Assembly: GCA_001949185.1 (NCBI GenBank)
Contig: BDGG01000018.1
Span: 124,001-188,000, forward strand
Reading direction: 5' to 3'
Length of the DNA stretch: 64,000 nucleotides
DNA from: Ramazzottius varieornatus
Lineage: Eukaryota; Animalia; Tardigrada
Shown here: positions 13,380-57,479 of the stretch, piece after piece
How positions within the stretch are numbered: position 1 is the first letter of the stretch
How the letters are laid out: the number at the start of each line of letters is the position of its first letter
The notes under the pieces: model-generated
The model's input: only the letters and a program-made list of their open reading frames with translations
Databases searched by the model: none
What the model was told of the DNA's origin: nothing
Position numbers and translations under genes: made by a program

Positions 13380-15043
13380 AGTGGACAAGATCGACGTCGG
13401 CTTCACTTGCAGGAAAGAAGCCTAGCTCGTCTGCAGTCTTCCACTGTCTAAAGCAACGTATACTGCTTCTGCGCTGACGACTTCATTTGTATCGAAAAAG
13501 GACGAAAAGGACGAGATTGTCGGAAGCAGCCATGCAGCTTTGACTAGAGAGGTTCATGATTAATATATCACCACCAGGGAAAAAAGAAGGGTGCCATATC
13601 GCACAATTACTGGACGCCACAGGAAGGTGTCAGATTGTCTGTTGCGCATGGTCCGTGATGTCCTGCTTCCTCTTTCGGTGTTTGTTTGGTTAGGAGAGAA
13701 GGATGTCCTGGCACTGAGACGGAGGTCATGCACTGTGAGCTTCCCCCTTGCAGCTGCCATCTTTGATAACTCTTGTTGTTGAACTTCCCACCACCATCGT
13801 TCTCCGCTGCTGAAAGTGAAGAAAGCACTGGAAAGACTGTCGCTGATGTCAGACCCAAGTTTGTGACTTACGTGCGTAGGGACTGTCGGACTTTAAGTAG
13901 CGCCAACAGGAAGACAAGGCACAGTAGAGCCATGGTCAGCGCCACCGCAATAGCCATATCCGTGCTGCGCTTTCCTGTAGGCAAGCAAGCTCCGTTATGG
14001 GTCGTAGAGTATGGCCACTTTTGATAATTCAAAACGCCGCAATCTATAAAGGGGACAAATGATTGATCCACAAACAAAATATGCGGAAGAACCGAAAGGA
14101 CAGATGCTGTAAGCATGCTCCTCACAAAGAACTTCCGTAAGGTGCTGCCGAAAACAATGTACAGTATCACTACGAATAGATAATCTGTAGTACCAGTAGT
14201 ATGTAATATCGATAGATACCATGGAAGAGAAGGATCTTCTTACCCCGAGTCTCTTTGTCGATTTCGTTGAGTATGGAGTTGTAGTCAGTCTGCGGCGAGA
14301 ATCCATCGACCGCGATCAAGCTGACGTTCGACCTCAGTAAGAAGCTCAACGATCCCCGCATGATTTGCGCTATAGTATCGAACAGCGGGTTGCGATAGGC
14401 GTCGCAGACAATGGTTACAGTTGTCCAGATTGAAGTGCTGCAACAAGGCGGCAAACAACTTGGTGGAACTGACCATGGCTGGTTTGCCTGCGGCACCACA
14501 CTCGATCCTCGTAGGCCATTTGACCTTGTTTTCTATGTCAGCTGCCGGTGTCGAGCTACAATTATAGACATAATTCATCGTGCCAGTTCATGGAGCCTTC
14601 ATATACTGCCATTGCCACCTTATGACAAACTTTCGGAGGTTAGTCGCTAGAGTGGCCGAGCCATGGCCATCGCAATCTAAAATTAAAAGGCATAACAAGG
14701 GATCAGAAGAGTGACTTGTAGGCTTCAGTGAGCTACTTATGGCATTTAGCAGGACATTTGTGATACCTGCGACAGTGTTCAGGAAGAGGGTCAGATTGGC
14801 GCGGCGCCATCGCTCCTCATTGCGGTAATAGTATTGGGCCATGACGTCGTCGCTACTGTCCATCCAGTCGGCACATTCCAAGAAGCGAGCGTCTGTCAAA
14901 ATATTGTGGCTGACATTCAAGTTGGGGTATAGCCTTCGGATATCCGACATTGAACTCTCGTAGGCGGGTCCCACATAAAACAAGGCCCCCATGTCATAAA
15001 CATAGTACAGGCTTAGAGAAATGATTTCGATATGAAGCACCAT
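13380..15043 (-). pseudogene. Degenerate receptor guanylyl cyclase / ANF-receptor-type ectodomain gene with a TM segment
   Basis: GPAYESSMSDIRRLYPNLNVSH..C..MAQYYY, then LLQHF[frameshift]WTTVTIVCD, YNSILNEIDKETR|VIL, then hydrophobic TM MAIAVALTMALLCLVFLLALL. Contains stops and frameshifts. The 3' limit is approximate. Confidence 0.6.
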
Positions 15044-15989
15044 TGAGCTCGAACCCGAGCCCGGAAAAGCAGGCAGACCCCGAGCTCAGATTTCCACGCC
15101 GCTGCTTTACCGGGGTATCTACGTATACAGCAACATCATCAGTCCAGCTAAAACAAACACTTAACAAGTACCGAAAGGTGACTTTCTTGCGCAGGAAATG
15201 CTTGTGCGGCAGATTGTCCCTGACGTGCAGTCCAGGCATTGATGCATATAGCTACTGCAGTGAACTCCAGTTAAGGTTCTACTGGATACCAATAAATCCA
15301 TTGACGTTTAATTTCGGAGCTTCCGCGGACCGAGCGAATGGTCCTGCGAGCAGAAGAAACAGCACGAATACACCAGTGTATGATCAGAAGCGAGCTTACA
15401 GTAGAGTTTTACGTCGCTCTAATCAAGCAGAGTGCACAAGGTAGAAGAAATTTACATTATTCGTAAGTGCCTCGAAGAGGATAAAAACTACCTAGCAAAA
15501 TAACGGAAGAAGTGTGTTCCGTTTGGGCCGGACAGGTGCCCAGAGCGCACTTATCTCAACCGGCGCTTACGTGGCCGAGCGCATGCTGTACGCCGGTACC
15601 TAGCTTTGCTGGTGCACGAGCAAAGAGTTTGCATTTGCACATTATAGACGATAAAATTTCATTGCTGCTACGCAGCTCTTTTTAAGACTCAATTCAAACA
15701 AATTTACCTCCCACCCTCCTGGTAAGGTGGTATGAATGTAATTAATTTCTTGAAACATCAAAAAAGATTTCAGTCCTCTCTTACTCGACACGCTCTTTCG
15801 AATGAGCTATTCTTGTCCAGGGATGAGAATGTCTCTGAAGCGAGATATCGCACATCACGGACCAAAAATTCCAAATTCCCAGACCAAAAATTCCAAAATC
15901 ATCGAAAAGCATGGCCCCTAAGGTAACTTTTCGCGCCCATTCCAGTGCCAGTCCAAGCATCCGGACTCCGGTCACGTGACGACAACACA

Positions 15990-20890: not shown

Positions 20891-21615
20891 AAATAATGGA
20901 GGTGGCTGGTTGGTTGGTTGCTAACCCTGATGCGTTCACAAAGTCGACGTAGTTCACGACGAAGTTAGTTGGAACGTGGTTGAATGACTCATCCCATACG
21001 TTTTCGACTTTTTGAACTGTTTTTGGGTTGTAACGACTAATCTAGGTCTGGGTTGAGAAAAATCGCCTTTATGAACGCTTGTTCATCGTGATGTTAACTA
21101 CTCGGTATTTCAAAGGACTGCTACAGCCAGGAGCTCGACCGATGGCTGAGCACCTCACCTACTGTTCCTGGAGAGCAAAGTAGCTTGGTGCAAAGGAGTG
21201 GCGTCCGATTCGAGGCCTTAAAGCGCGCAGCTGGTCAAACTGCATGCGGCCAGATGACCGTCATCCCGCTGGCCATGGTCCAGCTCTGAAGATCAGAAAG
21301 GCTAATATATTCATGTTGCTGACTCTCGATGACGATGATATCGCTACGGAGAAAAGCGGTAAAACTTGACAGTAAAAACAACCCTGCCAATCTTGTACGT
21401 AACTTACATGCCTACCGTTGTAAAAGTTCGTCAAGCGTTTCTTACCTTGTAGAAAACATGACTTCCATATTAACTCACATCTATCTCCAACACCATCAAA
21501 ACAGCCATAAAGAAGATAAAAACCGCTGCTTATCACTGTCCTCCAGTTCAAAAAGGCGATCGGTACTTCTTCTTTTCTTCTGTCGCGGACAACGTTTTCC
21601 TATACTGGTCGAAAA

Positions 21616-22869
21616 ATGAAGTCTTCTTCCAGATGGAGGTTTACACTACCAAATTTATTTAGAACAATTTTCCTGTTTGCTCTGGGCTTCTTATCCCTAG
21701 TCGAAAGCCAACTTCGCTTTTCCACAATCAGCCCGTCCTGGCAAAACCGAGCCGCCGTCGGATTCAACAACGACAGCAGTGTCGACCGCCAGATTGCCCA
21801 TTTTCCTTTTCCGCCGGCAACATGGTCGCCCTTCGCCACACCGGCCACTTCCTGGTCATGGGCAAACAACCCTCAACCCGGTTTCATGCTCCAGTCCAGC
21901 AACATCTCCTACAACAGCCTTCTGAACAGTAACCAGACCTACTACATTATCGAGCCCAGCACTTCGCCTTTGAAACGGGAACAGATCGCCGACCTGCGTA
22001 CTCGAGGGAAAATCGTGCTGGCTCGCTTGTCTATTGGCCAGGCAGACCGTTCGCTTCCATACTGGCAAGCGCAATGGGCTGACCGTCCACCAGAGTTCCT
22101 CGATCAAGAAGACCAAACTCGACCAGGTTACACCAAAATCCTCTCGACACGTTTCAATATGAAAAACATATGTTGGTAATGTAATTAACTTTATTCAAGA
22201 TAATATTCAGTTTCCAAAAAGAAGAAAGACAAATCTAAACAAGGAAAAACACGTCAAAAGCTTACGGTATAGATTCAAGTACACAAATTTGATTCAAGCT
22301 TTCAGCGTGCGGGCTGGCATATTAAAATTTGGGATGTGACTTTAGGCCACTTCCGGGTGATGTTTTGGCGACCGCAATGGCAACGCATGATCCTGCGCTA
22401 TATGCGCGAACGGGTGGCGCCGCTGGGCTTCTCGGGGCTGTTGCTAGATGGTGCTGACAGTTACCAGTACTTCACGGAGGACCATCCCCAGGGACGAGAC
22501 GACATGATCAACTTGATCCGAACCACCAGGGACCAAGCCAGCGCACTAGGCGGCAACCAAGTCATCATTGTCAACAACGCCGAAGACCTCTACAGCTCCT
22601 CGCAGTTCCGCAGCATGGTCGACGGACTGGCCACGGAAAGTACGTGGTTCGCCAACGACACCGACCTGTCGCTGAGCAATCCTCAGCAGGTGGAGAATGT
22701 TTTACGCTTGTTGAGACAGGCCAGGCGTGACGGCAAAGTCGTCTTGGCTGCCGACTATCCTTCGCGTTCTGACAACATTTGCACCTTTTACGACCGCTGT
22801 ACCGCTGAAGGATTTCTCTGCTTGGCTACCGACTACAACTTGACCGGAGCCATTCGTAAGTCGTTCTAG
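21616..22869 (+). CDS. Secreted glycoside hydrolase, GH114/TM1410(MJ1477)/PelA-hydrolase-like; 2 exons (intron 22127-22345)
   Basis: Signal peptide (IFLFALGFLSLVES). The core matches the family pattern: REQIADLRTRGKIVLARLSIGQA..YW, PG|HFRVMFWRPQWQ, GFSGLLLDGADSY, IIVNNAEDL, DGLATES, GKVVLAADY. Splicing restores the conserved PG-x-F/Y-x-V-x-F/Y-W motif. Confidence 0.85.
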
Positions 22870-25311
22870 TTCCATCATCGTAAACTCTGTCGTCACAAGA
22901 CAGTGTAAAAACAGTGATGCTTGTGCAGTCCACTCGCACAAAAGGCGCACAAAAGGCGCACAAAATTTGCCGAGTAATTTTCAAGACACACAAATCCTTC
23001 AGAGTTAACGATACTGCTCACCAAGGCCTTTACAGCCGAATACTTGCGACTTGATTGCTTGATTACATCAGTTAAAGCATCGTGTATCGTGTATATTCCG
23101 TAATTTTGGCATGTGGCTTTGCATGCTGTGCGATGAACGTTCGACAGACCTTAAATTAAAACAAAAGATTTTGTAAATATTTCGAGTGAGTGGACTGTAG
23201 TGCGATAATCGTGCTGCGACAGAGCTTCGAAATCACCTCGCTGTACCAATTAGTGCTTCTTATGTGTTTTAGAGTTTACAGTAAGGTGAAGAGCATCCCA
23301 CATAGTTAGGGTTCTTTTTCTTTCAGGAGTGTGTGATCGTCGTCCAAGCACGCCATGGAGTCAGTCCGGTCGCCCCCAGATGAATTACTCCATCATTCCA
23401 CGCTACAACGCTGGCTTCTCCCTACAGACGTCCATTGCTTCACTGTGCATGTCACTTTTTGCCATACTCGCTCTTACTAACTAGACTCTGTTTTTGTTCT
23501 CTGCAGTCAACTGTCGTACGCTGAAACTTTTACGCTCTAGCATAAACACGTGTAAATTTCCCATCATCCGCCCCAGCTGCAGCGGCGGGAGGACAGCAGA
23601 GGTCGCCGCAGTTACTGCTCATTGTAATTACCTGCCCATGTACATCCCACTTCCGTGTACATCGGAAGACGTCCACATTTACCAAAATTTGTCGCTCACA
23701 GGTACCATCTCCTCGTTTCGAACGATCAGCTGCAAAGGTTAGCATCGCTCTCTAGCGTCTATCATACACAAACCATCATTCATCTCTCTTAACCATGTGA
23801 AAATCGCTCGTGTGACGCATTCAAGAAGTGAGAATTATTCAACCCAAGAAGTGATTAGTGTATTAACGTTTGATTAAATGGTATTCCGCAGCACTCCTGC
23901 ATAATCGGGAAGGGATGGCTTTCAACAGGCTGTACGACCTTAGGATCTTGTGCAAAATGGGAGATCTTACAGTTGCCGCCTTAGCGCTCCTTAGAAAAGA
24001 CCTAATCGCACTGTATTGGAAAATGGGAGCAGAGGGTGAAATTGAAGTTGATTGCATGGTCTGCACCTTTAATTGATCATCTGTTTATCCCACAGGCCAC
24101 AGCCTCGGTGCCCAGCGTTAAAAACAACAAGACTCGCTCGGACAACCTAGTCGATCGCCCATCAGTTGTTCCATTATTGGAATGCGGGATCAAGCTTTTT
24201 GGTCCGGAATGAACATTCAAATCTGGCCAGAGTTGTGGAAAATGAAGGTTGCGAAGGGGCTGCGATGGCGTCGACCTCAGACACCAGGTAGGCGTTCAGC
24301 ACGAATGCTCTACGGGGCGCTGGAAGTAGGCAGGCATCACCGGCGGGCTTTCGTTGCCGCCCATTTCCCTGTCAAAGGCATATCGACGATAATCCATACA
24401 CTTGGCGCCGCAGGGACCATCCATAAGTCCCTGGCCGTCTGGGCGGCAATGCAACGACGACAGTTGGGAGCCTCGGCGGGACGGTGGCACATGCTGCTCC
24501 GCCTAACTGGCACTAATCAGCTGCCGCCCTTGAACTGCAGGCACTGCATGCCCTGTTGATGTCTTGACACGCTACCGACACACTTTCCATGGCCTTGATT
24601 AATCTTTCAGCATACTGCACATTCACTCTTTCACAAGCCCCCGTTCCGCCCAGCGCCTCACTGTGTCGACTAATCTTCCCCTTCTTACGCAGCAGATCAG
24701 CCGTACAACAGGCTCATAATTATGCCATCATTTGGCCACAAATAGCAGAGCGGATATGATTCGCCTGTTGACACTACTTGCTCTCATATCAGCCTCCACA
24801 TCCGCAAGCCAACATTTGCCCCATCCGGAATACGAAGGAGCTGAGCGGAAGGAAAGCGGCAGACGTTTTGCAGCTAGCAAAGAACCTTCTGGTCTTTCTT
24901 ATTGTGAAGCAGTATTTGAGAGTTGGAATATACGAGACTTCAATGCGATATAATGATAGTCTAGCTCGGTGCAAAATGTCATTATTGGCTGTGTCATCTT
25001 AGCTTCAACCTTCCTTCCTTCTCCCTGCCGTAATCATCGGCTCCTTGATTCCTTCCCTCCACTTGCACCAGTCTCGATCCTTCCCATGCCACCACCTCCA
25101 GGCACTTGCTCACCGTGCCACACATACACACTTTGCCCACTACATAAACCGCGGCACATATTCACCATCCACTTCTTCTTCTACAGTACTCTACCTAGCT
25201 CTCGTTGCGCCATCAACATACTCTTCTTACCTGTAGATCGCTGGAATTTCTGCCTAGAATGGTGGAGTGCACAGTTTGTCCGAGCATTCGTCCGTTATTT
25301 GTGTAGCCTGA

Positions 25312-32532: not shown

Positions 32533-33629
32533 TTAGAAGGTAAAATTTCGCGTGTAGTCATATTCGATAGTTGGAATGACAGCTTGGACAAACTTAAGAA
32601 AGATGACCAAGTAATTGTGAACATCTAGTTCTTTACCGCCTTCGGCCACCGTCTGGATAATCTTCTTCATGACGTCGGCGTGGCGGCAGGGGTGGATAGA
32701 GGCCATGGGTGGGAGGTTGAGGTGAGGATGGCTCTCCATGGTGATGGTCTTGCGCACATGCTCGGCGCTAAAGTCTTCGTACATCTCCTCGACCGACAGC
32801 GGCTTCCGCGACTCGTTGTAGCCCATCAGCCACAGCCGCGGTGTCTGGTAGTACTTGTCGTAGGTGATGTGCAGATCGTAGGTCCGTGTCTGCTCCACAC
32901 CTTCCTCCTCATCCACCAGCTTAGACTTCATCGGCGCAGGAGCCACAATGGCTGCAAAAACACAACGTTGAAAAGATGCCTTTTCAACCTCGTACCCGTG
33001 TGTATAGCTGGCCGACTGAATGACGTCACCATAACAAGGCCGTGCCAAAGTAACTGGCCTGCCACAGGGCCGTGCCACAACACCATGTGCACTGAAATTG
33101 ATTGTTGATTACCTGCATCCTCTTGGTCCAGCATTCCACTGCTGGCAAAGTCCTCCATATCGCCCGCTTCCTCATCATCGTCCTCGTCCTCATCCTCCTC
33201 CTTCTTCCCCGACGTAGCAGCTTGCCTAATGGTCACTTTATCCATCTTGGAAGTCATGCTGCGGGTCAGGTTGCCCTCTGTGCCGTCCGGGTGCGTGTCC
33301 ACCCAGCCACCTTCCGTATCGCCTTCCACCTCGATCACCTTTTCGTCCTGTGTCGATTCCAGCTGGCGACATCTTCGGTAGCAGGGGACATTCTTGGTGA
33401 TGAGGAACTGTTTGTCGGCGGGAAGGTAGGGCTTGGTCTTGGCCGAGTCACCGGCACTCCAGTGCCACGTCGGACAGTGATGGACCAGATGGTCGCCAGC
33501 CACCACAAACTCTTCGGGCGTAATGACACCTGTCTCCCGAAACTTGGAGTCTTTCAGGACAGGCGCTAGGAACTCTGCCACTCCATGGATGTGTCCTTTC
33601 ACCGAGTTCAAGACGTCCTGCATGGCCAT
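32533..33629 (-). CDS. ATG3: Autophagy E2-like conjugating enzyme ATG3; intron 32952-33112
   Basis: [39 protein letters not shown], acidic flexible region, [20 protein letters not shown], catalytic [20 protein letters not shown]. Confidence 0.97.
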
Positions 33630-36337: not shown

Positions 36338-37470
36338 TCACGGTAAGCTCGACAAGTACTCAAACAACGTCGGAGGCTCTAAATCAAAATATTGGTTTGT
36401 TTGGTTTGGGTACAAGCGGTTATGGCAGTTGGTAAGTAGAAAAGCAACACGGTAGAGGGTATTCACTGGCTTCTCGTACATCTTCATTTGTTTTCGAAAG
36501 TCGACAAAAGCAAAGTTCTTGATAACTTCTTTGAAGTTCCATTCGACAGCCTGTCGAAGCGTCAACATCCGCGTGTTCTGTTCTTTCTTGACGCGAGTTC
36601 TTTTCTTCGTCTCGGGAAAACGGCTTGCGCAGGACTCTGTTCTTCTTCGCGTATCTGCTGTCACCAAACAAGACATACCTTCGTAGGAATCCATCTTGCT
36701 TTTCCTGAAGATCATCCCGGATCCTGCTTCGTTCAGCAGGTGACATGCATGGAGCCCCTTTGACCACCGTACAAATTCACGATCAATCCTGCAAACATAG
36801 AAAGTGAACACCAGTTCCGGTCGATAAAGTTTTCTCTGATTTAAATAAACGCGTATACGCTTACCGTTGGGAATCACAACTCAGTGCCATTTTGTGCAGT
36901 GAATTCGTTTGTTCCCGCTGAACATATGTCGCCGGAAGAGTGTTGACCGGCAAACAGGCCTGCCTGTTCCATCGATGAAACCAAACACATCTGGCACTAC
37001 TCCTGGCCCAGGCCCACCTTTCTTTGCAATGGAAAAAGTAAATTGTTCGATGTCGTCTTCCTTCAGCTATTCCTGGTCCCACGTTCGCAACACAGAAGAA
37101 GACTTGTCGATAATCCGTAAAGCGGGGTCGATGATCCGTAACACCCGAGTAGGACATCCTTGGGAACGACCGAACATCTTCCGTTGCTCCATCCATCGGT
37201 TTGGATAAGTCAGTCTCCGCAGAACAGAACACAAGCCTTCGATTCGTGAAGCTGAGTCTTTACTAGATGTTTTCACGACTTTCGGAGATCGCAATACATT
37301 TAGCAGCTGGTACAGATGTTTCCGTTTGAATCGAAAGCAGACTCGCCATTCTTCTTCGCTGTTGCGATCCAATTCGAAGGCTTCATCCCTCCAAGCGTCT
37401 TCCGCCAAGGCTTTGCTTTTACGTATACGCCGTCGCAGGACGATAAACAGCTTGTACGAGATGTGAATAC
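36338..37470 (-). pseudogene. Harbinger/PHIS-type (DDE_Tnp_4) transposase, defective
   Basis: FRFKR..L, EGLCSVLRRLTYPNRW..FGRS, FGFIDGT, GNKRIH, LFGDSRY, LRQAVEWNF..FAFVDF, LLTNC..LYPNQT.QYFDLEPPTLFEYL. Contains stops and frameshifts; no start codon found. Confidence 0.9.
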
Positions 37471-37920
37471 ACAGAGCAGTTTACGATGCGAAGACGGTGC
37501 GATTTCTATTGCAATTGCATCGAAAGCGTGATCGTAAGCGCCGAACGAATACTCACAATTCACTCGATATCGCTATTTCGATACGATATTCTCCGATACC
37601 GTATTCTCGATATATCGTACCATATCGCAGCAAAATATCGATATCTGTGGAATTTCAGTTTTTCGGAATTCCATTGGTTCAAGCCCAAAAACTCAAGAAG
37701 CCGATTTCCACATACCGTATTTGTAAGATCAAAAGCGTCAGATGCAGCAATGACATGACTATACCAAGACTTCAACCACATGGAAACCTGGACAGAATTA
37801 GAACCAGAATCGAGCGGGCGGAGTGTGCTCGGTTCACCATGGCCGAAATCAAGTCTTTGAAATCAACCATGGTCTTCCGTGAACAAGATCTCACAGGCGA
37901 GTTTACCATTCAGCAGTATA

Positions 37921-38665: not shown

Positions 38666-41013
38666 CGAGGGATTAACGCCAATCGGTTCCCTCTGACGAG
38701 ATTCAGGATGCGCAGTCTAAACAAAAGGTCCTAAAAGAAATTCTGAAATTAACTATGGGAAGAGGAAATTAAGTACAAGTTTGCCGCTGGTGACGTAAAC
38801 GGCATGGCCAAATCAAAACGTTTGATTGTTCGGTAGTTGATTTGCCTTTGATTGAGTACTGGTCTGTACTGATCTTTTTCAGCCTTTAAGTGACATCTTT
38901 TTTGAAAACTCATTCAATCTTTGCAAGAGTCTTCCGTGCAACATGGACGTCGTCAACCCGATAAATGTTCTCAAGCTTCTCGAAGTGGATTATAGACAGA
39001 CTTTACAGCCTGACGATGCCCCAAGTGAAGGTGATAAGCTGTTGAAGGAAGTCCTCAAGGGTAAGACTGATTATGTAACTCAAATCGAAATCATTGCTAA
39101 AAACCATGTCGGAAGTTGGTACTAACCTGTCGCTGTCTAGGTTTAACTGACGAGAAGGTTGCACGAACTAGCACACCTCTACGAGCAATCGAAGAAGATC
39201 TCCAGTGTGATCTGCAAATTGATCATGCAACGTTCGAGGATTTTGAGAAGTCTATCATTAGCTTGAACTTGTTGAGCGCTCCTGACGAAGCGGAGTTCGA
39301 TGACAACGTGACGACCGAGCCTCCTTCCAGCGGCACTGAACCTTCTCAACATGAACTGTTCGCTCCAAAGATTCTAGATTCAAGAGCCGAAGCCAGTCAG
39401 ATGATTGACTTGAACTATAAGAAACGTTCGGTTACGTTTTGGAGAAACGCGACTTCGAAAAAACGACGCAGTCTCACAGCAGTCCAAAATCGATTTACAA
39501 GAGTAACCGGTGTCCGTCAATTTCAAGATTGGGAGAAGCATGTGGAAGCGGGTGGTTCACGTATGGACAAGCTGAAAAGGCTTAGACTGGAAACTGGCAA
39601 GCAGTTCTTTTTGGCGAAGAAGAAGAAGCATGTGGTCAAGGATCTGCATCTTCGTCGATGGGGACTTACAGCATATCAGGCCGTAGGTTTGGAGGGGTTC
39701 AAAGCGTCTCCTGACTGGATTGGAAAACTAAAACGGTATCTTTTCATATCAGTTTGTAGCGATAGATTTGTTATCTATCGTTAAAAATAATCAGTTAATT
39801 AACTATTTCAGGTATTACAGTATTTGCGATCGAAAGATCACGAAGTTTGTGACTGAAAAGTCCATCTAGAAACTTCCAAAGGTGAAACAGATGCCGCCGA
39901 CTGTGTAGCTCTCGTCCGATCAAGGACCGCAGATTACGGACTGGACTGTCTGTGAGATACGGATCAGTCAGGTTTTGAATATGAGATGAGACCTGGTCGT
40001 ACGTTGGATATTTGTGGTGTTAAACACGTGGAAGCTATAACCCAGTCCGAAAACTCCATGACTCATAGTTACACCGTAATGATGACTGTTTCTCCTGGAA
40101 CTCGCGAGTTTCTTCCAGAGCTTTTTCTGACGATGCAAGAACCAACGGGAGTGTTTGGGCCAATTGTGACTCGCACGATGTTCAAAGCTGAAGATTTGTA
40201 CGTGACGGCTTCAACATCAGGAAAGATGACTAAGAAGCTCTACTTGCAATGGTGTGCTGAGGTCTTTTTTCCTCATATGGTGGACCGGTGCATTCTGCTG
40301 GCTGATTCCTGGACGACTTTGAACGATCGAGACTCTGTGATGGAACTAAAACCTGACAACTTGGAATACGAAATGCTTCGAATCCCACCGAAAGTGACCG
40401 GAGATATTCAGCCTCTCGATGTTATGCTTTTCAGAATGTACAAAGGATTCTTCAAAAAGATTTCTAACTTTGTGATTCTGCGCAACCTACCTATCCAAAT
40501 GCATCACAGGGATGTAATACTTAAATTACATTCGTTAATCTATCAGCAGTTCCAATCTCCTAGATTTAAGAATCTTGTTCTCGCAGCTTGGTACGCATCT
40601 GGATACACAGATGAATGGATACGTCAGCCCTGCCGAGTTTTGCTTCGATAAGTTGACTAGTCATTGCTTCCACGAAAACTGTAAAAACACTGTCATATTG
40701 ATTAGCGGTTGGTGCAAGGGTCCTCTTTGCTTCTCCTATTTCTACGATGTCTACCACCTCTGTGAACTATATATTGCTTGGTTTGTATTGACACTTGGCA
40801 GGGTTTTGCATACAGTGTGCACTGTAGATCAGAAAGCAAGATTGCCGTTTACGTCACCAGCGGCAAACTTGTACTTAACTTCCTCTTCCCATAATTAATT
40901 TCAGGATCTCTTTTAGGACCTTTTGTTTAGCTCAATCTGTGAAGGAAACTGTCCTCTATCAGACTGCGCATCCTGAGTCTCATCAGAGAGGACCGATTGG
41001 CGTTAATCCCTTG
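38666..41013 (+). mobile_element. Tc4/Tc5-like DNA transposon, full length, defective (copy 2, a different subfamily)
   Basis: TIRs of about 140 bp (CGAGGGATTAACGCCAATCGG / CCGATTGGCGTTAATCCCTTG; the right TIR has an extra 32 bp at about 40931-40962). TTA duplication in a CTTAG target. Confidence 0.92.
38943..40780 (+). pseudogene. Transposase of copy 2; introns 39061-39140 and 39736-39811; DD37D-type spacing; C-terminal Cys/His motif
   Basis: FKASPDWIGKLK, DQSGFEYEM, LADSW...IQPLD (37 residues between the last two Asp), CFHENC..WCKGPLC..HLC. Stops near 39867 and 39953, plus frameshifts. Confidence 0.9.
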
Positions 41014-41247
41014 TTAGTAACTGTCCGCGGCGGCTGCTGAGTTAGTCCGCATTTTGGCACGCCGTTGTTTGCTGAAGGCGACGTACTGCAGCTCAACAGT
41101 GATTACCTGTACCTGTACCCTTCTTGTTCCAGAATCCCTCTGTGTCACCACAATCATCGTCCCAAAGTTCTACGGCAGAGCTGTGACAGTAAGTTTGAGT
41201 GAAGATTACCGTTATCCTCTGCCTACTTCACCCAAAGCTCAGCGAAG

Positions 41248-43645
41248 ATGGCTTGTTGCGGCAACGTTAATGGCAGGGTCCATGCTGCCTCCTCTGCCTC
41301 CTCTGCCACTCCTCTGGACTTCATGAACGGACCTCCAGAGAGGATTATGTACGTGACATGTCTCCAGCCAGCCGAGCCAGAAGATCGTAATGGCAAGTCG
41401 GACTACCTGGCCACCATCGATGTTGACCCAGAGTCGCCCACTTACTGCCGGGTCAGAACGCAAAGTTTGCTTGATGTTCCACCGGAAGTCGTTCTTCTTT
41501 ACCACTTTGTGCTGATTGAATCAATGAGATATGTGCTTATAGGTTCTGAATCGACTGTATATGCCGGAGCCGGGAGATGGTGGGTGTTTCCAGCCATTTC
41601 GTTTCACGCTTTGTGCAATTTTGATCAAGAGTTTCATCTGTCATTTCTGGCAGAGTTGCATCATTTTGGGTGGAATGCTTGTGTCAGCTGCCCTGATCGG
41701 GAAAATGCCCACAAGTACCTCATTGTTCCCGGCTTCTTCTCCGGCAATATCCACATCATCGATGTAGCTTCAGAGCCGCTAAACCCAAAGCTTATCCATG
41801 TAAAAAGTCATTTTTCATTGAACTAGTTCCCTTGATTACTTTTCACGACCGTACCTGATGATTGCAGTTTGTCAAAGGCAGCGTGATTAAGGGCAAATAC
41901 GACGCTTCCCATCCTCACACGGTCCACTGCATCCCATCTGGCGATGTCATGGTTCACACCCTGGGAGACGCGGAGGGCAACGCCGTGGGCAAGTTCTACC
42001 TTCTGGACGGCAAGACCTTCGAGCCCAAAGGTTTGTGGAACACGGGCAAGGAGAAGATCATGGGCCACGACTTTTGGTACCAACCCCGCTACAACATCAT
42101 GGTCTCCAGCGAGCTGGGAGCCCCCAAGAAGTTCACACAAGGCTTTGCAGCCACTGATATGGCTCTAGGTAATTTTATAGTAATCAGCCAATAGTCTTCC
42201 ACATCGTTTTCTCAAGTGACACACGCTTCCAGCCAATATCACCATTAAAGTGCGCCACTTGGGAAGAGGATCTGGTGGATCTTGTTTGCCGAGCTTTCAT
42301 ATCGCGAAATCTGCATTTGGTTCCACGTAGGTTATTACGGTAGCAAATTGCACTTTTGGAATTGGCGGGAACGAAAGATCGAAGAGACGGTGGATCTGGG
42401 TTTGGTGTATGGTGCGTTGGCCATGGAGATTCGCTTCCTGCACAGCCCCAATGCGCCACATGGCTATGTCTGCACGGGAGTGGGATCAGCCATCTATCAC
42501 ATCACCAGAAACGAAGTGCGCTTTCTAGAAGGTCTCCCAGCTGAAGGACCAACCTGGGGCATCATAATTACGCATTTTGCTTTTCTGCAGGAACAAAAGT
42601 GGACTGCCAACAAAGTCATCAATGTGCCACACAAGGTCGTCACCAACTGGCAGCTTCCTTTCATGCCAGGTAAATTTTTGTGTGGCCTCGATAACGATGC
42701 TGTTTCTCAGCTGAATACGGAAGACAAAAAAGTGTGTCTGAAAAGGTTTGTATGTCTGGAGTTTTACGAAATAAAAATTGAACAAATGAAAATGTTCAGT
42801 TTATCCATCGCGGTGTCGACTTTCGAGACTGGAAAAGAATGATTTTACTTGTTTGTAGGTTTGGTCACGGATCAACTGATTTCTTTAGACGACAAGTATC
42901 TCTTCTTTACATGCTATCTGCATGGCGATGTTCGCCAGTATGACATTTCCAACCCGGCAGAACCCAAGCTTGTCTCCAAAGTACGCTGTCCCAACTCATC
43001 AATGGACAGTCCACGGAAATATGGGCGCTGATGATTAACCATTTGTTGTCTGTGCTTTGTAGTTCTACGTTGGCGGAAGTACTTGCCCAGACACAGAAGT
43101 GCACGTCGTCAAGGACGAAGAGCTGGAAAAGCAGCCTGAACGACTGGTGGTCAGAGGCAGACCAATCTAGTAAGTCACTGACGAGTTTCAGCCACCTGCA
43201 TTCATGAGCTCGTACCATTAGCTTGGCTGTGCTGTATGCATGGGCACCCCGCACCGCTGACCGATCTTCCCAGAGAGATCGATTCTTGGTCTTTGTAGTG
43301 GAGGACCACACATGGTACAGTTGAGCCGAGACGGCAAGCGTCTGTATGTCAGCACGTCCATCATGACTCCATGGGATAAACAATTCTATTCCTCGTTAGC
43401 CAAGTAAGCGCACATTTCTCTCCCAGTAGCTGATTGCTCTTTCTTTGTTGCACCGGTGCCAGTTCGATATCAGTGCTGTGCTGCGTAGGAAGGGCGGCGT
43501 GATGATACAGCTGGACGTGACGGCGCAAGGGCTAAAGCTGAACGAGAATTTCCTGGTGGATTTCGGTGAGGAACCCGATGGACCTTGTCGTGGACATGAG
43601 ATGAGGTACCCGGGCGGCGACTGTACCTCTGACATTTGGCTTTGA
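41248..43645 (+). CDS. SELENBP1: Selenium-binding protein 1 / methanethiol oxidase
   Basis: [103 protein letters not shown]. Multiple GT-AG introns. Confidence 0.96.
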
Positions 43646-43975
43646 AAGACGCCTCTCTTCAACTGGTCATGCTTCTCCCACCTGGCCAGAAATGACCCTA
43701 ACCAGATTCTTTACACCGCACCATCATATTCTGGTGTTTGTGACGTGCCTTGTTGCCTCAAAGTTTGATGGTCTTATCATTTAGCTTTCGCATCACTTTG
43801 TTGTGAGCTTTTAAAGTTTATACAGCTTTTTCAGAAAATACATAGGTAACTTTTCACAGAAGTCTTCCAAGTCCAGGCAGCAAATAAACAGTGACAATTT
43901 GAGTTGGGACCGAAAGGCCGTACATGTGGATATCAGTGGCAAAATGCGTTTTGAATAGCGAATTTGCCGGGTCCT

Positions 43976-44260
43976 TTAATGACTCTTGCCTCCAGAGCTA
44001 CCTCCGCTTGGTCCTTCGCTTTGTCCTCCGCTGTGTCCTCCGCTATTTTGGCCACTTGCAGTTGTGGAGCTCTGGCTCCCAGTACCGCTGCTTCCACCAC
44101 TGTGTCCTCCAGCTTGTCCGCCCTGCGATCCGGAGCTTCCAGTATTCCCTTGGCTTCCTTGGTGGCCCCCACTCTGCCCTGTCTGTCCCTGGCTTCCTTG
44201 TCCAGACTGTCCGGACTGTCCGCTTTGGCCGTGGCTTGCTCGTCCGCTCTGGTCAGCCAT
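43976..44260 (-). CDS. Small Gly/Ser/Gln-rich intrinsically disordered protein 1 (94 aa)
   Basis: AAAATG start, GQS repeats, no L/I/V/F/W/Y/C. TATA-like box at about 44381-44390 and a 5'UTR splice donor at about 44335. Confidence 0.7.
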   Translation of the reverse strand: MADQSGRASHGQSGQSGQSGQGSQGQTGQSGGHQGSQGNTGSSGSQGGQAGGHSGGSSGTGSQSSTTASGQNSGGHSGGQSEGPSGGSSGGKSH

Positions 44261-44765
44261 TTTCCGTTAAAGGGAGACTGCTTGCATCAACTTTGCACGC
44301 CGAAAGAAAAGTGTTGGGCTACAAAGAAAACTTACAGTAACGTTGCTGAAACGGCTGCTCTTCGTCGAGATGTGCACAACTTTATATAAAATTCTGAGGA
44401 GGTCGTAAAACTGGTGCGTATCGCTGTGGGAAATTACCTAGCTCGAGCTGGCGGGGAATTACCCAGACTGAGCCTGTGAGCCATTCGTCAAAATTAATTC
44501 TGTTAGCGATTTGAAGCAAGAACCTTTGGACGCTGTTAACTACCAGATAGCATTGTAAAAGGATTTTCCACTGACGGTCTTGCCCTGTATTGACAGACCG
44601 TGGCTCGAAACGCACTCGGTTGGCGATCACGCCAAAGTTCTGGCAATTTATTATCAATGTAAGCTGGAAGAGCAACCTATCCGACAGCAAAGCATTGATC
44701 CGTAGCGGTAAGTCAGTAGCAACCTGACATTCGTCACAGGAACAATAAGCTGCGAAACTGTAATC

Positions 44766-44970
44766 AAGGAAGGAAGGAAGGAAGGAAGGAAGGAAGGAAG
44801 GAAGGAAGGAAGGAAGGAAGGAAGGAAGGAAGGAAGGAAGGAAGGAAGGAAGGAAGGAAGGAAGGAAGGAAGGAAGGAAGGAAGGAAGGAANNNNNNNNN
44901 NNNNNNNNNNNNNNNNNNNNNNNNNNNNNNNNNNNNNNNNNGGAAGGAAGGAAGGAAGGAAGGAAGGAAG
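44766..44970. repeat. (GGAA)n microsatellite containing a 50-N gap (44892-44941)
   Basis: Read directly from the sequence. Confidence 1.
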
Positions 44971-45212
44971 CCACTGGTCCATGGAATCTTGTGAAAGATC
45001 ACTTCCGGCAGGGAAAAACAAACAAGGTGAAGAACTGCCTACAGAGTTGTTCATATTGTTCTCCATCACCGAATGTGGCGTGGCAGATATTCCGGTACTT
45101 CGCCATTGCCCATTTCACAAATACCAGCGTCGAATAACAGTGAAAATATCTTGTAGAAATTACCGACAGACGAGCGGAAATGACAGAGGCAGGGAATATT
45201 CCAGAGAGAATG

Positions 45213-45530
45213 CTATTGCAAGTTCTTTGAGCCTTTGCCGACACCTTGGCCACTGCCACCGCCACCAGCAGTGTTGACATCCGTACCTCGAGTGCCTTCT
45301 CCGTGAGGCTTGCTGGCCGCATCCATGTGCCCACTTCCGGCGTCAGCGTGTCCCCCCGTTCGGCCGGGTGTCCCTCGGCTCTTGGTCTCCTCAGTCTCGG
45401 CACCCTGTCCACCCCGGCCAGCACCGTCCCCGCTGTCACCAGTGTCACCGTAGCTGCTAGCTCCACTCTGGATACCCAAGTCCTGGGCATTCCCCTTGTT
45501 CATGTTGGTGTTCTTGCTCGACTCCGACAT
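45213..45530 (-). CDS. Small Gly-rich hydrophilic disordered protein 2 (105 aa)
   Basis: Acceptor tag|AAAATGTCGGA, N-terminal NTNMNKG. Candidate TATA (TATAAA) at about 46188 and donor at about 46119. Confidence 0.7.
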   Translation of the reverse strand: MSESSKNTNMNKGNAQDLGIQSGASSYGDTGDSGDGAGRGGQGAETEETKSRGTPGRTGGHADAGSGHMDAASKPHGEGTRGTDVNTAGGGGSGQGVGKGSKNLQ

Positions 45531-46537
45531 TTTCTACAAGTAAAAGCAGGCGTCACTTGACAATGCATCGCTCATCCATCAATGAATGATAATTTTATGT
45601 CATCGAAAGTCACACAGCTACTGATCCGGATGGTGAGTTTCCATCAGCAACCAACCGTACGCGTTCGCGGGGCGACGCGAGCATGAAACCAATTAAAATA
45701 AAAAGGCACGTTCAAATGTGAACGCATCTGTCACTTCCGGCAGACGCTCTGGACACTTTCCCCCTCCATCCATTCTGCTTCTTCCATGCAGAATCGCGAT
45801 CATGCAACCCAGGAAAGAGCAGAACTCACCGGCGGCACGGGGATCAGATGAGTATTCCTGGGTAAGAACGGAGCTGCTAATTAAGTGAGGAGGAAACGGC
45901 GAATTAATTGAGTGCTGTGCTGTCGCATCGGCTGAAACTCGGCTCATTGCTCATTGCCACTTCGCCAGTCGACGTCGGCGACGGAAAGGACGTCATACGC
46001 CACTTCATGACGGCGAACCACGCTGCAGCTGGGCGTACAACCGACTATTTGTGCAGCTCCACGCGCAGTTCCAGAAGTGACAGGACCAGAGTGATTCCTC
46101 GCTTTTTGCCGATACTACCTTTCACAGCAACACGGCAACAAAGTGAAACATCCGGATGGAACGCGGACGAGATGACGGATGCTTTATAGAGAGAATGCTG
46201 GCTTCCGGTTTGCGATTGTGGCAAGCTGAAACCCACTTCCTCTTTCCCTCCTTTTCTCACTCAGATTACTATTTCACCATCGCGATGCTTCCGGAATCTT
46301 CCAGTGCACAATCACGTCCTCGAACTTCAAACGATAATGAGAAGCACGATAATTTTGTTAGAAATGTTTTACCTCGTCCTGTTCGATCGGGATGATGGAC
46401 GATCACCGACCTGAACGCATTCTACCATCAGAATTCGTGAGCACCGATTCAACAACGCCGGCTTAGAACAGGAATTATTAGCGGAAAGAGTAAAACAAAG
46501 GCCTAAAACGTGCAACAGAAAAGATGACATGAAATTA

Positions 46538-47014
46538 CTAGTGGCTAGAGCTGCCTTGGCCAGGGTGGCCAGCTCCGCTGCCACCGCTACCATGAGGCTT
46601 GATCTCACTGGAGTGCGAGCCAGCGCCACTGTTCTGCTTGCCGCTATCCTGTTGATGGCTTCCGCTACCCTTGCCGACGTTACTTCCGGTGTGCATTTCG
46701 CTTGCAGCGCCTGCACTACCCGGCGCCTCTTTGGTGCCATCATTGCCACTGCGCCCGCGATCCCCGCTGGGTCCAGTGCCACCAATGGTCCCTTGTCCAT
46801 CAGCGTTGTTCTGTCCTCCCGTGTGGATATCCTTGCCACCGCTGGTGCCAGTGCCACCGGTGGGGTTGGCTCCAGTGTTGGCTCCAGCGCCACCGGTAGG
46901 GATGTCGCCACCCTTGTTGGGATTCTGGTTCGACTGAGGGCCAGGTTGGCCACCTTGGTTGTTGCTGCCCTTGTTGACGTTGGTATTTTGTCCTCCAGAG
47001 CTACCGTCCGACAT
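46538..47014 (-). CDS. Small Gly-rich hydrophilic disordered protein 3 (158 aa)
   Basis: Acceptor cag|AAAATGTCGGA, N-terminal NTNVNKG shared with protein 2, 5'UTR donor (gtaagt) at about 47290. Confidence 0.72.
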   Translation of the reverse strand: MSDGSSGGQNTNVNKGSNNQGGQPGPQSNQNPNKGGDIPTGGAGANTGANPTGGTGTSGGKDIHTGGQNNADGQGTIGGTGPSGDRGRSGNDGTKEAPGSAGAASEMHTGSNVGKGSGSHQQDSGKQNSGAGSHSSEIKPHGSGGSGAGHPGQGSSSH

Positions 47015-48851
47015 TTTCTGCAAGGAAGGCAAACGCTCAACGGGGACGGTCCAGCAGACCTATAAGACTTAACTTGCGGCAAATTCCCAACGAACTAGCC
47101 AGTGGTTTTGATTGATTTCTTCATACACAATCATACCAGCCAAGACAGTAACCATAGCACGACAAACTAATCAGCTCAAAATACCCCACAGGAAACGCAA
47201 TCGAGTCGACTGCTGCTGCACCTTCCCGTAATCGAAGCGATCCCTCACGTCCCTGATCTAGCCTGTAAAGTAAGCAGCCCTGGCACTTACCGGAAAGCTG
47301 AGTAGTTCCTTGATGAGAAGAAAGCCGAAGGTGCAAAGAGTCCGGATTGCTGAGGGGAATCGGAAGTCAGAAGGCACTGGAAGTCGGAAACTAAACGAGC
47401 AAGACGGTAACACGGCTGTTTTCATGCTGTACCGCACCGGCTGCCATCAGCGCGTACGACCACTCGTGTCACTCGGTGGACGCAGGCCCCATGCGAAAAT
47501 CCCCATGGAACGTCACGTTTTCGTACAATCGTCATGTTTGCAGCGACAGATGGCAGCACTTCTGATGGCGCTGCCCAGATTCAGCAAAGGAACGGTTGTT
47601 TGGTGGTTTTGATGTTCGACGAGCTGGTTGATTATCTCCGCTCGTCCAGAAGCCCTTAGCTGCTCTGGCATCATTTTCTTTTGGTATAGCAGTGAACGAA
47701 TCGTATCTCTATCATAATCAAGAGCAAAATTTGGCAAATTGCATTAAGACACCGTATGACGAATTTTTGTCACAACGGAAGACCCTCGAAAAAGACGACA
47801 ACTTTCGCAGATTTTCAGGCATTTTTCAAAAATCGGTTTCTTGATCTTGTCTACTTTTTCTGTGCTGTTAACAGTTGAAACACATAGGAAAATAATCAGG
47901 CTACCTGCAACATGCTTAAGAGCTGAGATATAACCCCCCGAATCAGAAGTTATACTTTTTGACGTGGAAGGGGGTTTCCCGGCAAAAAGGCCAAATTCCG
48001 AGTTCCAAATTTATGTTGTAAATCAGCTCGACTTTGTTGTCGTTGTTTTCGGTTTTATATGATGAACCAAACAGTTTTACACTCTTCAAATTGAAGTTGG
48101 ATTTTGCCGCTTAGAAATAGGGTATGTGAGATAATTGTTTCTCCTTGGCACAGCGTCTCCCTGCCCGAAGTCAAACTTTGGGTTGTTCGCGGGTTGTCTC
48201 TCACTGAACTGGAACGTGTTATAATTTCATGGAATCAGCTTGACACGCTGTATGATACACCGTGAGAACCAAGGAGAAACTATCTTTGTTGATTTTCTGA
48301 AGCGCTATGGCAGCGATGTGGCCCGAACGGGCTGTAGCTCAAACTGCATGGCGCACAGATCTAAATTGAGCCGCCCCAGTCTTCGGCACGTTTGCCGTCA
48401 ACCATGACAACTAAAGGTCTAAAATTCGACATTACACAGGGTTACTTGTACACTGTACAATCATGGATCCGATTCGTCCACGACGGTCAGTAGATTTTAT
48501 TGTGCTAGCACACTCCACAATCTAGGACGGTTCTGTCTTTTCAACTACATAATATGTATCTAAGGGACATAATGACCAAGCTAAGGATACGGATTTCGCC
48601 TGACCTTAATCCTGGAACGGAATTCGGGCCGAATTCCGGTCTAAAGCTTATACTCCGATGCGGAATTCCACGTGCTCCGAATCGGGATCAGCCGGAAAGG
48701 AACGGAATTCCTCTTTTCCAGGCGACATTAGGCACGGAGCGGAAAACAGAATGCGTGCCCTTATATTAGGCTAAGCCACCTCACTGGCAGCGCCCATGCA
48801 TCGATTGTCTTTTTCTGCTTCGTGCTTCCTTTCTCTCTAGATCCATCGTGC

Positions 48852-51141: not shown

Positions 51142-51477
51142 ATGTACATTATTTATTCGACGGCCAATGTTCTGACCGCCCTTGTCCATGTGGGAGTGAT
51201 TAACTTGATCACCTATGGGGCGTCGGAAATGTGAAGCTTTTTTCTGGTGCAGCCACCGTATCTCTCTGCCATGGAGGACATTGAGAAACTGTATCCGCAG
51301 CTAATGTTACCACACCATATTATAACGGATCCGGCGTATACGCGCTGTACAGATTTGATGCCCGTCAGCGACAATATGCTGGCCGAGTTTTATTATTCCA
51401 ACGAGTCTAAAGGACGAAAAGCCAATCTTACCGTATTCATCAGCAACGGAGCAGGTTTGACGACTATATTCGTGTGA
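51142..51477 (+). pseudogene. N-terminal exon of a receptor guanylyl cyclase / ANF-type ectodomain (stop at about 51232)
   Basis: PPYLSAMEDIEKLYPQL..HHIITD..C..SDNMLAEFYYSNE..RKANLTVF aligns with the 14770-15043 minus-strand exon. Confidence 0.7.
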
Positions 51478-55096: not shown

Positions 55097-57479
55097 TTAG
55101 ACCACACCTTCCCGCCTTCTACCTGTTACACTCATACACCGTACAGAGCTGTTGAACGTCACTGCAGGAGAAACGAGAGTTGACTTTTAACGCTGGATGT
55201 TTTCTCTGATAGCACGGCACCGGTCCCAATCTCGAGGACAAGGAAAAGTGGCCAACGCGACTAGAAACCACCACAGGCAAGAACGGGCTTGGCCGAGCCG
55301 TAAAAACCTTTACCGGGCTACTCTTGCATTTCAACTGGACGACTGTTGTTGTCGTCTGCGAAGCGGAACGTCCCAATCTGCGGTCATGGTGTCTGGAAGT
55401 GCATAAAGGCCTGACTGCCGCCTTCAGTGGCTCCAATTTGCCCCTCATGTACGTGGACGGATTTTCGTCGGACACCAACTTTACCGCAGTTAAGTTGGAG
55501 CTCAACAGATCAAGGCGAGGTTGGTCAAAACTTTGACATTCATGAGGTCATATTCACGTGAGAAGTGAGCGGAATTTGTGACCTTTCCAGTAGACTGACC
55601 ACTTCTTTTACGCAGTTTTCTTACAATCTTACAGTAGTTATCTACTACGTTTTCGGAGAAACCATGCGCAAACTGATGGTAAGGTCCTTTATAACTATAC
55701 TAGCGAGATACATCTGACAAGCGTGTATGCCTGCTGTGGTTGCTGTCTGTTTGCGTTTCTTGAACCAGGAGACGTGCTGATATAAAACTATGACGATTCG
55801 TGTGAATTTACTACAGCTTGCGGCATACAGCATGAATATGACACAAGGATATCACGTAAGTTTGCAGTGATGCTCTTTGGGGTCGTGGCACTACACCAAT
55901 ATCTCCGGCTCGCCGACAGTATGGACTAGGCTGTTGACATTTCAAGATCTTGGAGGGCTGACTATCTATGCACAGTATCGAGGAACACAATTCACCGCGC
56001 TCCACTAGCACGACGTACGTGATTGTCCAGCCAGTCAGCCCATAAATCTACTGTTTTAACCGTGGAAACGAAGATTTTTCACTTTGAAAGTTAATTGTTC
56101 GTGGCAGTGCCAAGTACATATGTATATCTCACCAACACGGTTCAAGTCTGCAAAAACTTTTCTGTTTTCGGGAAGTTTTCCTGTAGAAGATTGCTTGAGG
56201 AAAGAATTTACCAGGAATTAAACAGTGAAAGCATGTCTGTAAATTACCAGATGACGTCATGACCCACGTGCGTACAGTCGTGCAACCTGGAGCATAATAC
56301 GGTCCACGAGAATCAATTCACGTGTTCTGGATTAATGCGGACCCACAGTAAAAATAATTCAGGAGAAAGACAAAGCGATACGCACACAATAAGGTGCGTG
56401 CTGTACAGTATGTTGAGTGGGCGGGCTGGCTGGCCGGCTACTGGCACATGCACAGCCGAGTGCAGTATGCACAACACTGCACAGGAGCGAGGTGTTGTAT
56501 TAGTGAAAATCGTTCCGACTGGGGACGTTGGTACACGCGCCTGCTCTGTGTCTCGACATGGAGAGAAGTCTTGACCGAACATGCGAGAGAGCATCTGTCA
56601 CTCAGTAATCAACTCAAATCAGCCAACATGTGGCGCTGTCGGCCGCTCGGTTAAGACTTTTATACCTGTCAGTACATAGGGGAGGCGCGTATACTCGATA
56701 CACTCTTGTAAATGCGACAACACGTACCCAGTTCCCATACCTACACGAAAAAGATGTTTAGTCTCTTCCAGGTACATCTGCTGGTCATCTCCTTTCGTAA
56801 TCCGACTTTCGGCAACTACAGCTAGAAAAGAGGAGATCATCAGGATGCGGTAGGTTTCAAATGCCTCTTAATCCAAACAATCCAGTCCTCGCGAAGCTCG
56901 CGGATAGCCTAGAAGCAGTTGCTCTACAGTAATAATCCTCCCTTCTTCGGTACGTCACACTTCTACACGCTGAAGCGAGCCAGTAGATAGTTTGCGCGAG
57001 GTTTGCGTCTGACAAACGTACACGTCATCTCACGTCATGTGGCAACTCGCCGTGTTGTGGAGCGGCATCTTTGGCTTTCTTCTACGTTTGTTTCAGTCTC
57101 CAAAAACAAATTTGAGTCTCATCACACATTCCCTACTACACGACTCTGCCTGGGACGTACTGAAGAAGTGAGGATTATCACTGTATTCGGTAACAGCTTC
57201 TATGAGTGGTAAAATATAACCCTACCTCGGCAGAATGACGCCCCTCCCCCTCCTGGTATGACCAGTCGAGAGATTTCGTCAAGGTCTATTGAATGGTCAC
57301 GTTGAGGGGGTAACAATCAACTCCATAGTAAACTACTGTATACTTTCCCGAAATTCACGTACGTCACTCCATTCAGAGTGTAAAACTAGATGGTAAGACC
57401 CCAATGATTTGAAAGTCAGTGACGTACGTGAATTTCGGGAGAGCACACAGTAGTACCATACCCGTATAAGCCAATATAC

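Follow-up and report, generated by a model that had tools for sequence, protein, structure and literature searches.

Three neighbouring minus-strand genes, labelled g1, g2 and g3, form a 3.4-kb cluster within a 64-kb stretch of the Ramazzottius varieornatus genome (contig BDGG01000018.1, positions 124,001-188,000; the window, whose own numbering is used below). All three are transcribed. We regard them as real, partly mis-annotated orphan genes for unusually plain disordered proteins with a plausible protective role. An earlier reading of the letters (the original prediction) had described a single locally duplicated family; the locus is better described as two paralogues plus a look-alike than as a proven family of three.

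Transcripts and coding frames

Twenty of the 21 listed sequencing runs covered part of 45100-47500 (6 study codes); none is recorded as RNA, and runs were taken as such from their splice joints and poly(A). Transcript contigs were aligned on 45000-48200 and on 40900-44750 from four runs in each case, and their depth is unsuitable for ranking genes by expression. Transcripts of g2 and g3 were present in runs from 4 study codes. The three predicted same-strand open reading frames (ORFs) of 94, 105 and 158 aa, each with AAA before the ATG, were found in place on the minus strand. The introns that had been predicted in all three 5' untranslated regions (5'UTRs) were spliced in g2 and g3 in 4/4 runs with contigs on 45000-48200, ending 3 nt before the ATG, but g1 was unspliced in runs X1 and X5.

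In g2, a non-coding first exon (45830-45932; contig 5' ends 45918-45932) is followed by a 296-nt GT..AG intron (45534-45829), the coding sequence (CDS; 45213-45530; 105 aa, 10.1 kDa) and a 3'UTR (45032-45212), where contigs ended at 45032-45040 in 3/4 runs and at 45165 in X3, with no poly(A) seen in them. The parts of g3 are a first exon at 47291-47396 (5' ends 47392-47396 in 3/4 runs), a 273-nt GT..AG intron (47018-47290), a CDS at 46538-47014 (158 aa, 14.7 kDa) and a 3'UTR (46353-46537) with poly(A) at 46353, seen as a poly(T) loose end in 3/4 runs.

The g1 CDS (43976-44260; 94 aa, 8.4 kDa) was recognized by ORF scan, composition and codon periodicity. In two of four runs, X1 and X5, contigs ran unspliced from the last exon of the neighbouring SBP56/SELENBP1-type gene through g1 to 44356 and 44338, respectively, giving a 96-nt 5'UTR (44261-44356) that contains a 6-codon upstream ORF (uORF). 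X11, without cover on g1, and X15, without contigs on 40900-44750, are uninformative for g1. The loose ends behind 44356 (X1) and 47392 (X10) are adapter-like; we take them to be template-switch adapter, and hence to mark minus-strand 5' ends. Assignment of g1 to the minus strand rests on one contig, which carries one adapter-like loose end and is merged with the plus-strand neighbour. A TATA box (TATATAAA, 44381-44388, minus strand) 32 nt upstream of the g1 5' end is consistent with a minus-strand start. Of the two TATA-like boxes in the original prediction, this one is suitably placed, but the g2 box (CTATAAAG, 46182-46189) lies ~250 nt upstream of the mapped g2 5' ends, too far to serve as core promoter for the principal g2 transcript. 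About 60 nt on from CTATAAAG stands a donor-like AAG/GTAGTA (46113-46189, minus strand for the pair), and short unspliced contigs cover 45962-46201 in 2/4 runs; an alternative upstream g2 first exon at 46113-46189 on the minus strand is possible.

The SBP56/SELENBP1-type gene (41248-43645, within 41044-43902; plus strand; 480 aa, 9 spliced introns) stands outside the family and is convergent with g1, its 3' end meeting the g1 3'UTR. Between g1 and g2, a (TTCC)n microsatellite at 44766-44970 holds a 50-N assembly gap, so the true g1-g2 distance is uncertain.

The Gly-rich frames are favoured as the coding frames of all three genes. They open at the first ATG, in AAA context, of the rebuilt g2 and g3 mRNAs, and after the uORF in g1. 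Three-base periodicity was evident in g1 (p = 2.4e-7), g2 (5.7e-8) and g3 (2.2e-20), with T at 1-8% in codon positions 1-2 and 18-27% in position 3, and was absent from 6/6 flanking stretches, among them the tails that belong only to alternative ORFs (p 0.23-0.98). A synonymous-codon test built on 741 reference codons placed the Gly frame above the same-strand alternative for g2 and g3, not above the antisense frames, and scored a 136-aa antisense ORF above g1.

NCBI/UniRef contains the g2 protein exactly; exact look-up of g1 and g3 was negative. The Atlas contains g3 letter for letter. Among 1.84 billion representatives, searched without a profile, g3 had no self-match. Four of ten alternative ORFs tested at these loci are deposited in NCBI/UniRef: one of 143 aa in g3 (46369-46800, minus), one of 163 aa in g2 (44999-45490, minus), and two antisense ORFs of 136 and 138 aa over g1 (43979-44389 and 43924-44340, plus). 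These four are likely annotation artefacts. The 143-aa ORF begins 214 nt past the first ATG of g3, and the 163-aa ORF reaches no stop within the g2 contigs. The R. varieornatus gene set consists partly of ORFs extracted from assembled RNA-seq models (PMC5034306), which would explain the wrong-frame deposits; in X1 and X5 the SBP56/SELENBP1-type gene and g1 assembled as a single contig, a possible source of the antisense deposits over g1. Proteomics on this gene set would miss the Gly-rich products of g1 and g3, because the collection has other frames or the other strand there instead; the expectation that annotation would overlook the genes was right for g1 and g3 and wrong for g2.

It is very improbable that the Gly frames go untranslated and the loci yield the deposited off-frame or antisense proteins or non-coding RNAs: the deposits, the synonymous-codon scores of the antisense frames and the single adapter-like end, in a fused contig, behind the g1 strand speak for it, whereas splice sites, together with the g3 poly(A), show g2 and g3 to be minus-strand genes, the 143-aa ORF starts late, the 163-aa ORF lacks a stop, periodicity ends at the stop codons of the Gly frames and the TATA box suits a minus-strand g1 start.

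Composition and kinship of the three proteins

Gly makes up 34.0, 26.7 and 28.5% of g1, g2 and g3, respectively, with a grand average of hydropathy (GRAVY) of -1.27, -1.15 and -1.23 and net charges of 0, -2 and -1. Charged residues range from 4 to 21%, K+R number 2, 10 and 9, and each protein has 1-4 Arg and 0-1 aromatic residues. Cys, Trp and Phe are missing from all three; g1, with Gly, Ser and Gln at 34, 27 and 16%, lacks all of C/I/L/F/W/Y/V. The share of L/I/V/F/W/Y/C/M is 1.1% in g1, 8.6% in g2 and 5.1% in g3, the three lowest among the 157 ATG ORFs of at least 60 aa in the window (next-lowest 22%), which argues that they are not chance frames. No hydrophobic leader was found in the first 35 aa (best Kyte-Doolittle 8-mer <=0.52). 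The proteins were thus as hydrophilic, as free of Cys, Trp, Phe and signal peptides, and as consistently supplied with His as the original prediction had it, including the complete lack of L/I/V/F/W/Y/C in protein 1.

The amphipathic helices of LEA and CAHS proteins are also missing, as predicted. The longest Gly/Pro-free run is 7-12 residues, with none >12, and AlphaFold2 run on single sequences gave no secondary structure for g1 and g3 and low confidence (predicted local distance difference test, pLDDT, 52 and 48.5; predicted template modelling score, pTM, 0.12), the latter being frequent for any orphan run in this way. By the charge-hydropathy boundary, each of the three proteins is classed as unfolded. 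His residues number 5 in g1, at 10, 33, 53, 76 and 94 (every 18-23 residues, ~21), 3 in g2, spaced 7-8 apart, and 7 in g3, of which 6 fall within the last 51 residues, 7-14 apart in the C-terminal part. Gly recurs with period 3 in g1 (17 pairs versus 10.4 expected, z 3.0, p 0.002), in G-X-X runs of 6, 4 and 4 triplets (14 triplets in runs of at least 4, p 0.004) with Ser/Gln at 26/34 X positions and Ala at 4.3% of the protein; the period was not significant in g2 (p 0.23) or g3 (p 0.20). A single tryptic peptide holds 85 of the 94 g1 residues, whereas trypsin would release 6 peptides of 11-27 residues from g3 and 4 from g2.

Intron position, a ~100-nt first exon and an N-terminal NTNxNKG motif are common to g2 and g3. 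The predicted motif is present in these two genes only, as NTNMNKG in g2 and as NTNVNKG, with a second NPNKG, in g3. Their DNA matched over acceptor, start and motif with a score of 38, reached by 0/300 shuffles, and their proteins shared 5 non-Gly/Ser identities in 7 residues, reached by 0/200 shuffles; the shuffles ignored splice-acceptor and start-codon signals, which makes the p-value optimistic, and whole-protein similarity was weak (z 1.3-2.8). With this moderate support from sequence comparison, g2 and g3 are likely old tandem-duplicate paralogues. The comparison of g1 with g3 (protein p 0.01, DNA p 0.03, one 14-nt exact match) may reflect shared composition alone, and g1, without the intron or the motif, probably has a separate origin or has diverged too far for kinship to be recognized. 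The predicted local duplication thus applies to g2 and g3, and g1 resembles them at the level of composition.

Full homologue searches covered g2 and g3, and g1 was searched by exact look-up, Pfam, PDB and Atlas; the low complexity of the three proteins reduces the power of all of these. For g3, the 749 candidates (E up to 1) included no homologue, and among 19 candidates for g2 only g2 itself was found. The one match of g3 among the 1.84 billion representatives, at 25%, was an unrelated repeat protein. In metagenomes, g3 matched 0/156 stretches; the one g2 candidate among 591 (43/64 parts scanned; locus L001) was rejected as a GC-rich bacterial shadow frame. Pfam gave no match for any of the three (0/3), a PDB sequence search with g1 gave none at E up to 10, and the best Atlas matches for g3 (0.86) and g1 (0.87) fell below the 0.9 bar. 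These results agree with the predicted lineage restriction, g2 and g3 being without relatives in the protein and metagenome searches and g1 without any in its narrower set. A full-text literature search, conducted with gene ids unfixed and most subscription journals outside it, returned no description of g1-g3.

Candidate roles

Our tentative preference, which we consider quite possible, is that g1-g3 are cytosolic, random-coil shields of the hydrophilin type, possibly binding metal through His. Composition, host biology and analogy with hydrophilins, dehydrins and Hero proteins (PMC13552118 also belongs to this basis) suggest the following course. Each mRNA would be translated from its first strong AAA-ATG into a heat-soluble random coil in the cytosol. 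As the cell dries or freezes, hydrogen bonds from the Gly backbone and the Ser/Thr/Asn/Gln side chains to client proteins would take the place of water, and the chains would hold these clients separate in the glass; the helix-to-filament switch of CAHS and LEA proteins would play no part. The His residues could bind Cu, Zn or Fe, damping radical chemistry as salts concentrate. The high expression, heat solubility and stress protection of the original prediction are likewise inferences.

Hydrophilins are defined by Gly >6% and hydrophilicity >1.0 (PMC11277543), and all three proteins show both properties (Gly 26.7-34.0%; GRAVY -1.15 to -1.27). Dehydrins rich in Gly, His and Lys scavenge radicals or bind metals (PMC10816898), Hero proteins shield through composition alone (PMC11448004), and in R. 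varieornatus tolerance genes are constitutive and many abundant transcripts are tardigrade-unique (PMC5034306).

Several points weigh against the shield proposal. Yeast with 8 hydrophilins deleted kept its tolerance and Stf2 gave no protection (PMC6054528), which indicates that generic hydrophilin properties are insufficient, and hydrophilins and Hero proteins are usually charged whereas g1-g3 are charge-poor. The searchable g2 is not among the 336 T-DRYPs, the TFE-reversible condensate proteome of PMC9592077, in which the sole 105-aa entry is an 11.4 kDa CSRP3 orthologue; the look-up by length covered 105 and 158 aa and gave no 158-aa entry, but g1 and g3 are not in the public protein set. 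Because species- or phylum-unique genes make up 41% of the R. varieornatus total (PMC5034306), orphan status says little on stress. The limits given above on the AlphaFold2 confidence, the shuffles and the whole-protein similarity count in the same direction. A further point would apply only if an unverified match holds. In a UV time-course (PMC9145152), g5332 is a selenium-binding protein and g5333 a hypothetical protein at 249 transcripts per million, up 2.1-2.7-fold at 36-72 h; the pair could be this locus and is not anchored to it. Neither of the anchors FRMD8 and PABP2 turned up in the window, either with 4 motifs or among 142/191 stop-to-stop frames of at least 45 aa scanned beyond 47,600. 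Were g5333 one of our genes, it would be UV-induced (Table S3) and not in the slow-drying overlap. For the transcript induction by osmotic or water stress that marks hydrophilins, this unverified g5333 is the sole lead.

A more specific proposal, possible though on balance unlikely, is that the proteins are protectants of an additional class, very small Gly/Ser/His chains with neither charge nor helices, which combine hydrogen bonding with metal capture, g1 acting through intracellular polyproline-II (PPII) assembly triggered by metal or drying. Such a class would have been missed by heat-soluble and condensate proteomics because for two of the three genes the deposited models have the frame or the strand wrong, and because g1 is nearly without tryptic peptides.

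We consider it unlikely that g1-g3 function outside stress tolerance, in housekeeping or in a particular tissue or stage, for example as disordered spacers or as carriers of NxNKG for a binding partner, or that they are dispensable young genes. Clear conservation between g2 and g3 is limited to the N-terminal NTNxNKG, which recurs in g3 in the manner of a short binding motif; the frequency of orphan genes in this species (PMC5034306) and the absence of g2 from the T-DRYPs (PMC9592077) would also fit. However, the loss of hydrophobic and aromatic residues over the full length is more in keeping with a bulk physical function than with one that depends on the motif only, and the presence of g2 and g3 transcripts in runs from 4 study codes also counts against this reading.

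It is decidedly unlikely that the products act inside the cell as structural or granule proteins akin to filaggrin, hornerin or loricrin, in which case they would condense, dissolve upon a pH drop, be cross-linked through Gln or be cut to humectant or antimicrobial peptides. The Gly/Ser/Gln/His-rich g1 with its short repeats recalls filaggrin-type proteins, whose His- and Ser-rich repeats form pH-sensitive granules, and hornerin yields antimicrobial peptides (PMC8348711). These proteins are, however, thousands of residues long, Arg-rich and headed by an S100 domain (PMC8348711), against 94-158 aa here, and the few Arg and aromatic residues of g1-g3 leave few stickers for phase separation. Pfam gave no match here either. 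The missing signal peptide excludes a secreted cuticle protein.

Highly doubtful is the idea that g1, perhaps with the others, forms a Gly-rich PPII bundle on drying or cooling that acts on ice or as a reversible gel, with His lining one end. The period-3 Gly, the triplet runs and the regular His of g1 recall the strings of 3-4 G-X1-X2 of which PPII bundles are built (PMC10235112), and such bundles have been proposed to be overlooked elsewhere (PMC8409303). The springtail proteins, however, have Ala-rich ice-binding faces and signal peptides (PMC10235112), whereas g1 has mostly Ser/Gln at the X positions, little Ala, no signal peptide and no Cys; the AlphaFold2 model of g1 contains no bundle, PDB offered no match, and the period is not significant in g2 or g3.

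Known tardigrade protectants act by helices (CAHS, LEA), fold (SAHS) or charge (Dsup). Since g1-g3 have none of these, they would make it possible to ask cleanly whether protection can come from Gly/polar composition by itself, which yeast hydrophilin genetics did not settle. Their size of 8-15 kDa makes them easy to produce, and they would be usable as stabilisers if active. The mis-framed models at this locus point to a gap in coverage: proteomics databases may lack short tardigrade genes of low complexity, and a six-frame, composition-based re-search could reveal further such genes.

Other window features and comparison with known systems

Elsewhere in the window, a GH114 glycoside hydrolase gene lies at 21500-22870 on the plus strand (Pfam E 1.4e-6); GH114 is mainly bacterial and fungal, and horizontal transfer is possible. 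An Atg3 gene lies at 32533-33626 on the minus strand. Its best named relatives among 1,066 matches are from Hypsibius exemplaris (63%) and Paramacrobiotus metropolitanus (62%), which places the window in a eutardigrade distinct from both, and a 177-aa ENA protein (P0003), 83% identical over the aligned part, points to a closer relative. DDE-type transposase remnants are present at 5200-6740 (minus), 39100-40650 (plus) and 36338-37480 (minus), with Pfam DDE_1 tested on 39959-40648 only. An exon for an ANF_receptor ligand-binding domain lies at 55213-55533 (plus), and the frames at 51235-51477 (plus) and 14588-15085 (minus), alike by eye, may be pieces of a receptor ectodomain.

Secreted cuticular Gly-rich proteins have a signal peptide together with a chitin-binding domain or Tyr/Cys cross-link residues. 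These defining features were not found in g1-g3, which have no leader, Pfam domain or Cys. The S100 fused-type proteins filaggrin and hornerin resemble them as Gly/Ser/Gln/His-rich intracellular repeat proteins, but g1-g3 are far shorter and poor in Arg and aromatic residues, without an S100 EF-hand head or long repeats. With the PPII antifreeze proteins of springtails (Collembola), g1 shares G-X1-X2 strings, which are not in g2 and g3, and a similar size; it has Ser/Gln instead of an Ala-rich flat face, and no signal peptide, Cys or predicted bundle. Tardigrade CAHS, MAHS, LEA and Dsup proteins are, like g1-g3, disordered and tardigrade-restricted, and g2 and g3 add tandem duplication to the likeness; g1-g3 are much smaller, with net charges of 0 to -2, and have no helix-forming segment or detected homology to them. 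Hero (heat-resistant obscure) proteins, which are heat-soluble and shield client proteins, are highly charged, whereas g1-g3 are near-neutral and charge-poor. Both are predicted to be fully disordered, without a conserved domain and with a possible composition-based function (PMC11448004).

Dehydrins carry a Lys-rich K-segment that forms an amphipathic helix, which g1-g3 are without, having no Pfam match, few Lys and Arg, and only short Gly/Pro-free runs. Hydrophilins at large (yeast Hsp12 and Stf2, plant dehydrins) differ from the Gly content of 27-34%, the few charges and the lack of a sequence match in g1-g3. The likeness is drawn by composition criteria: g1-g3, like the hydrophilins, are small, with Gly >6%, hydrophilicity >1, predicted disorder and His present.

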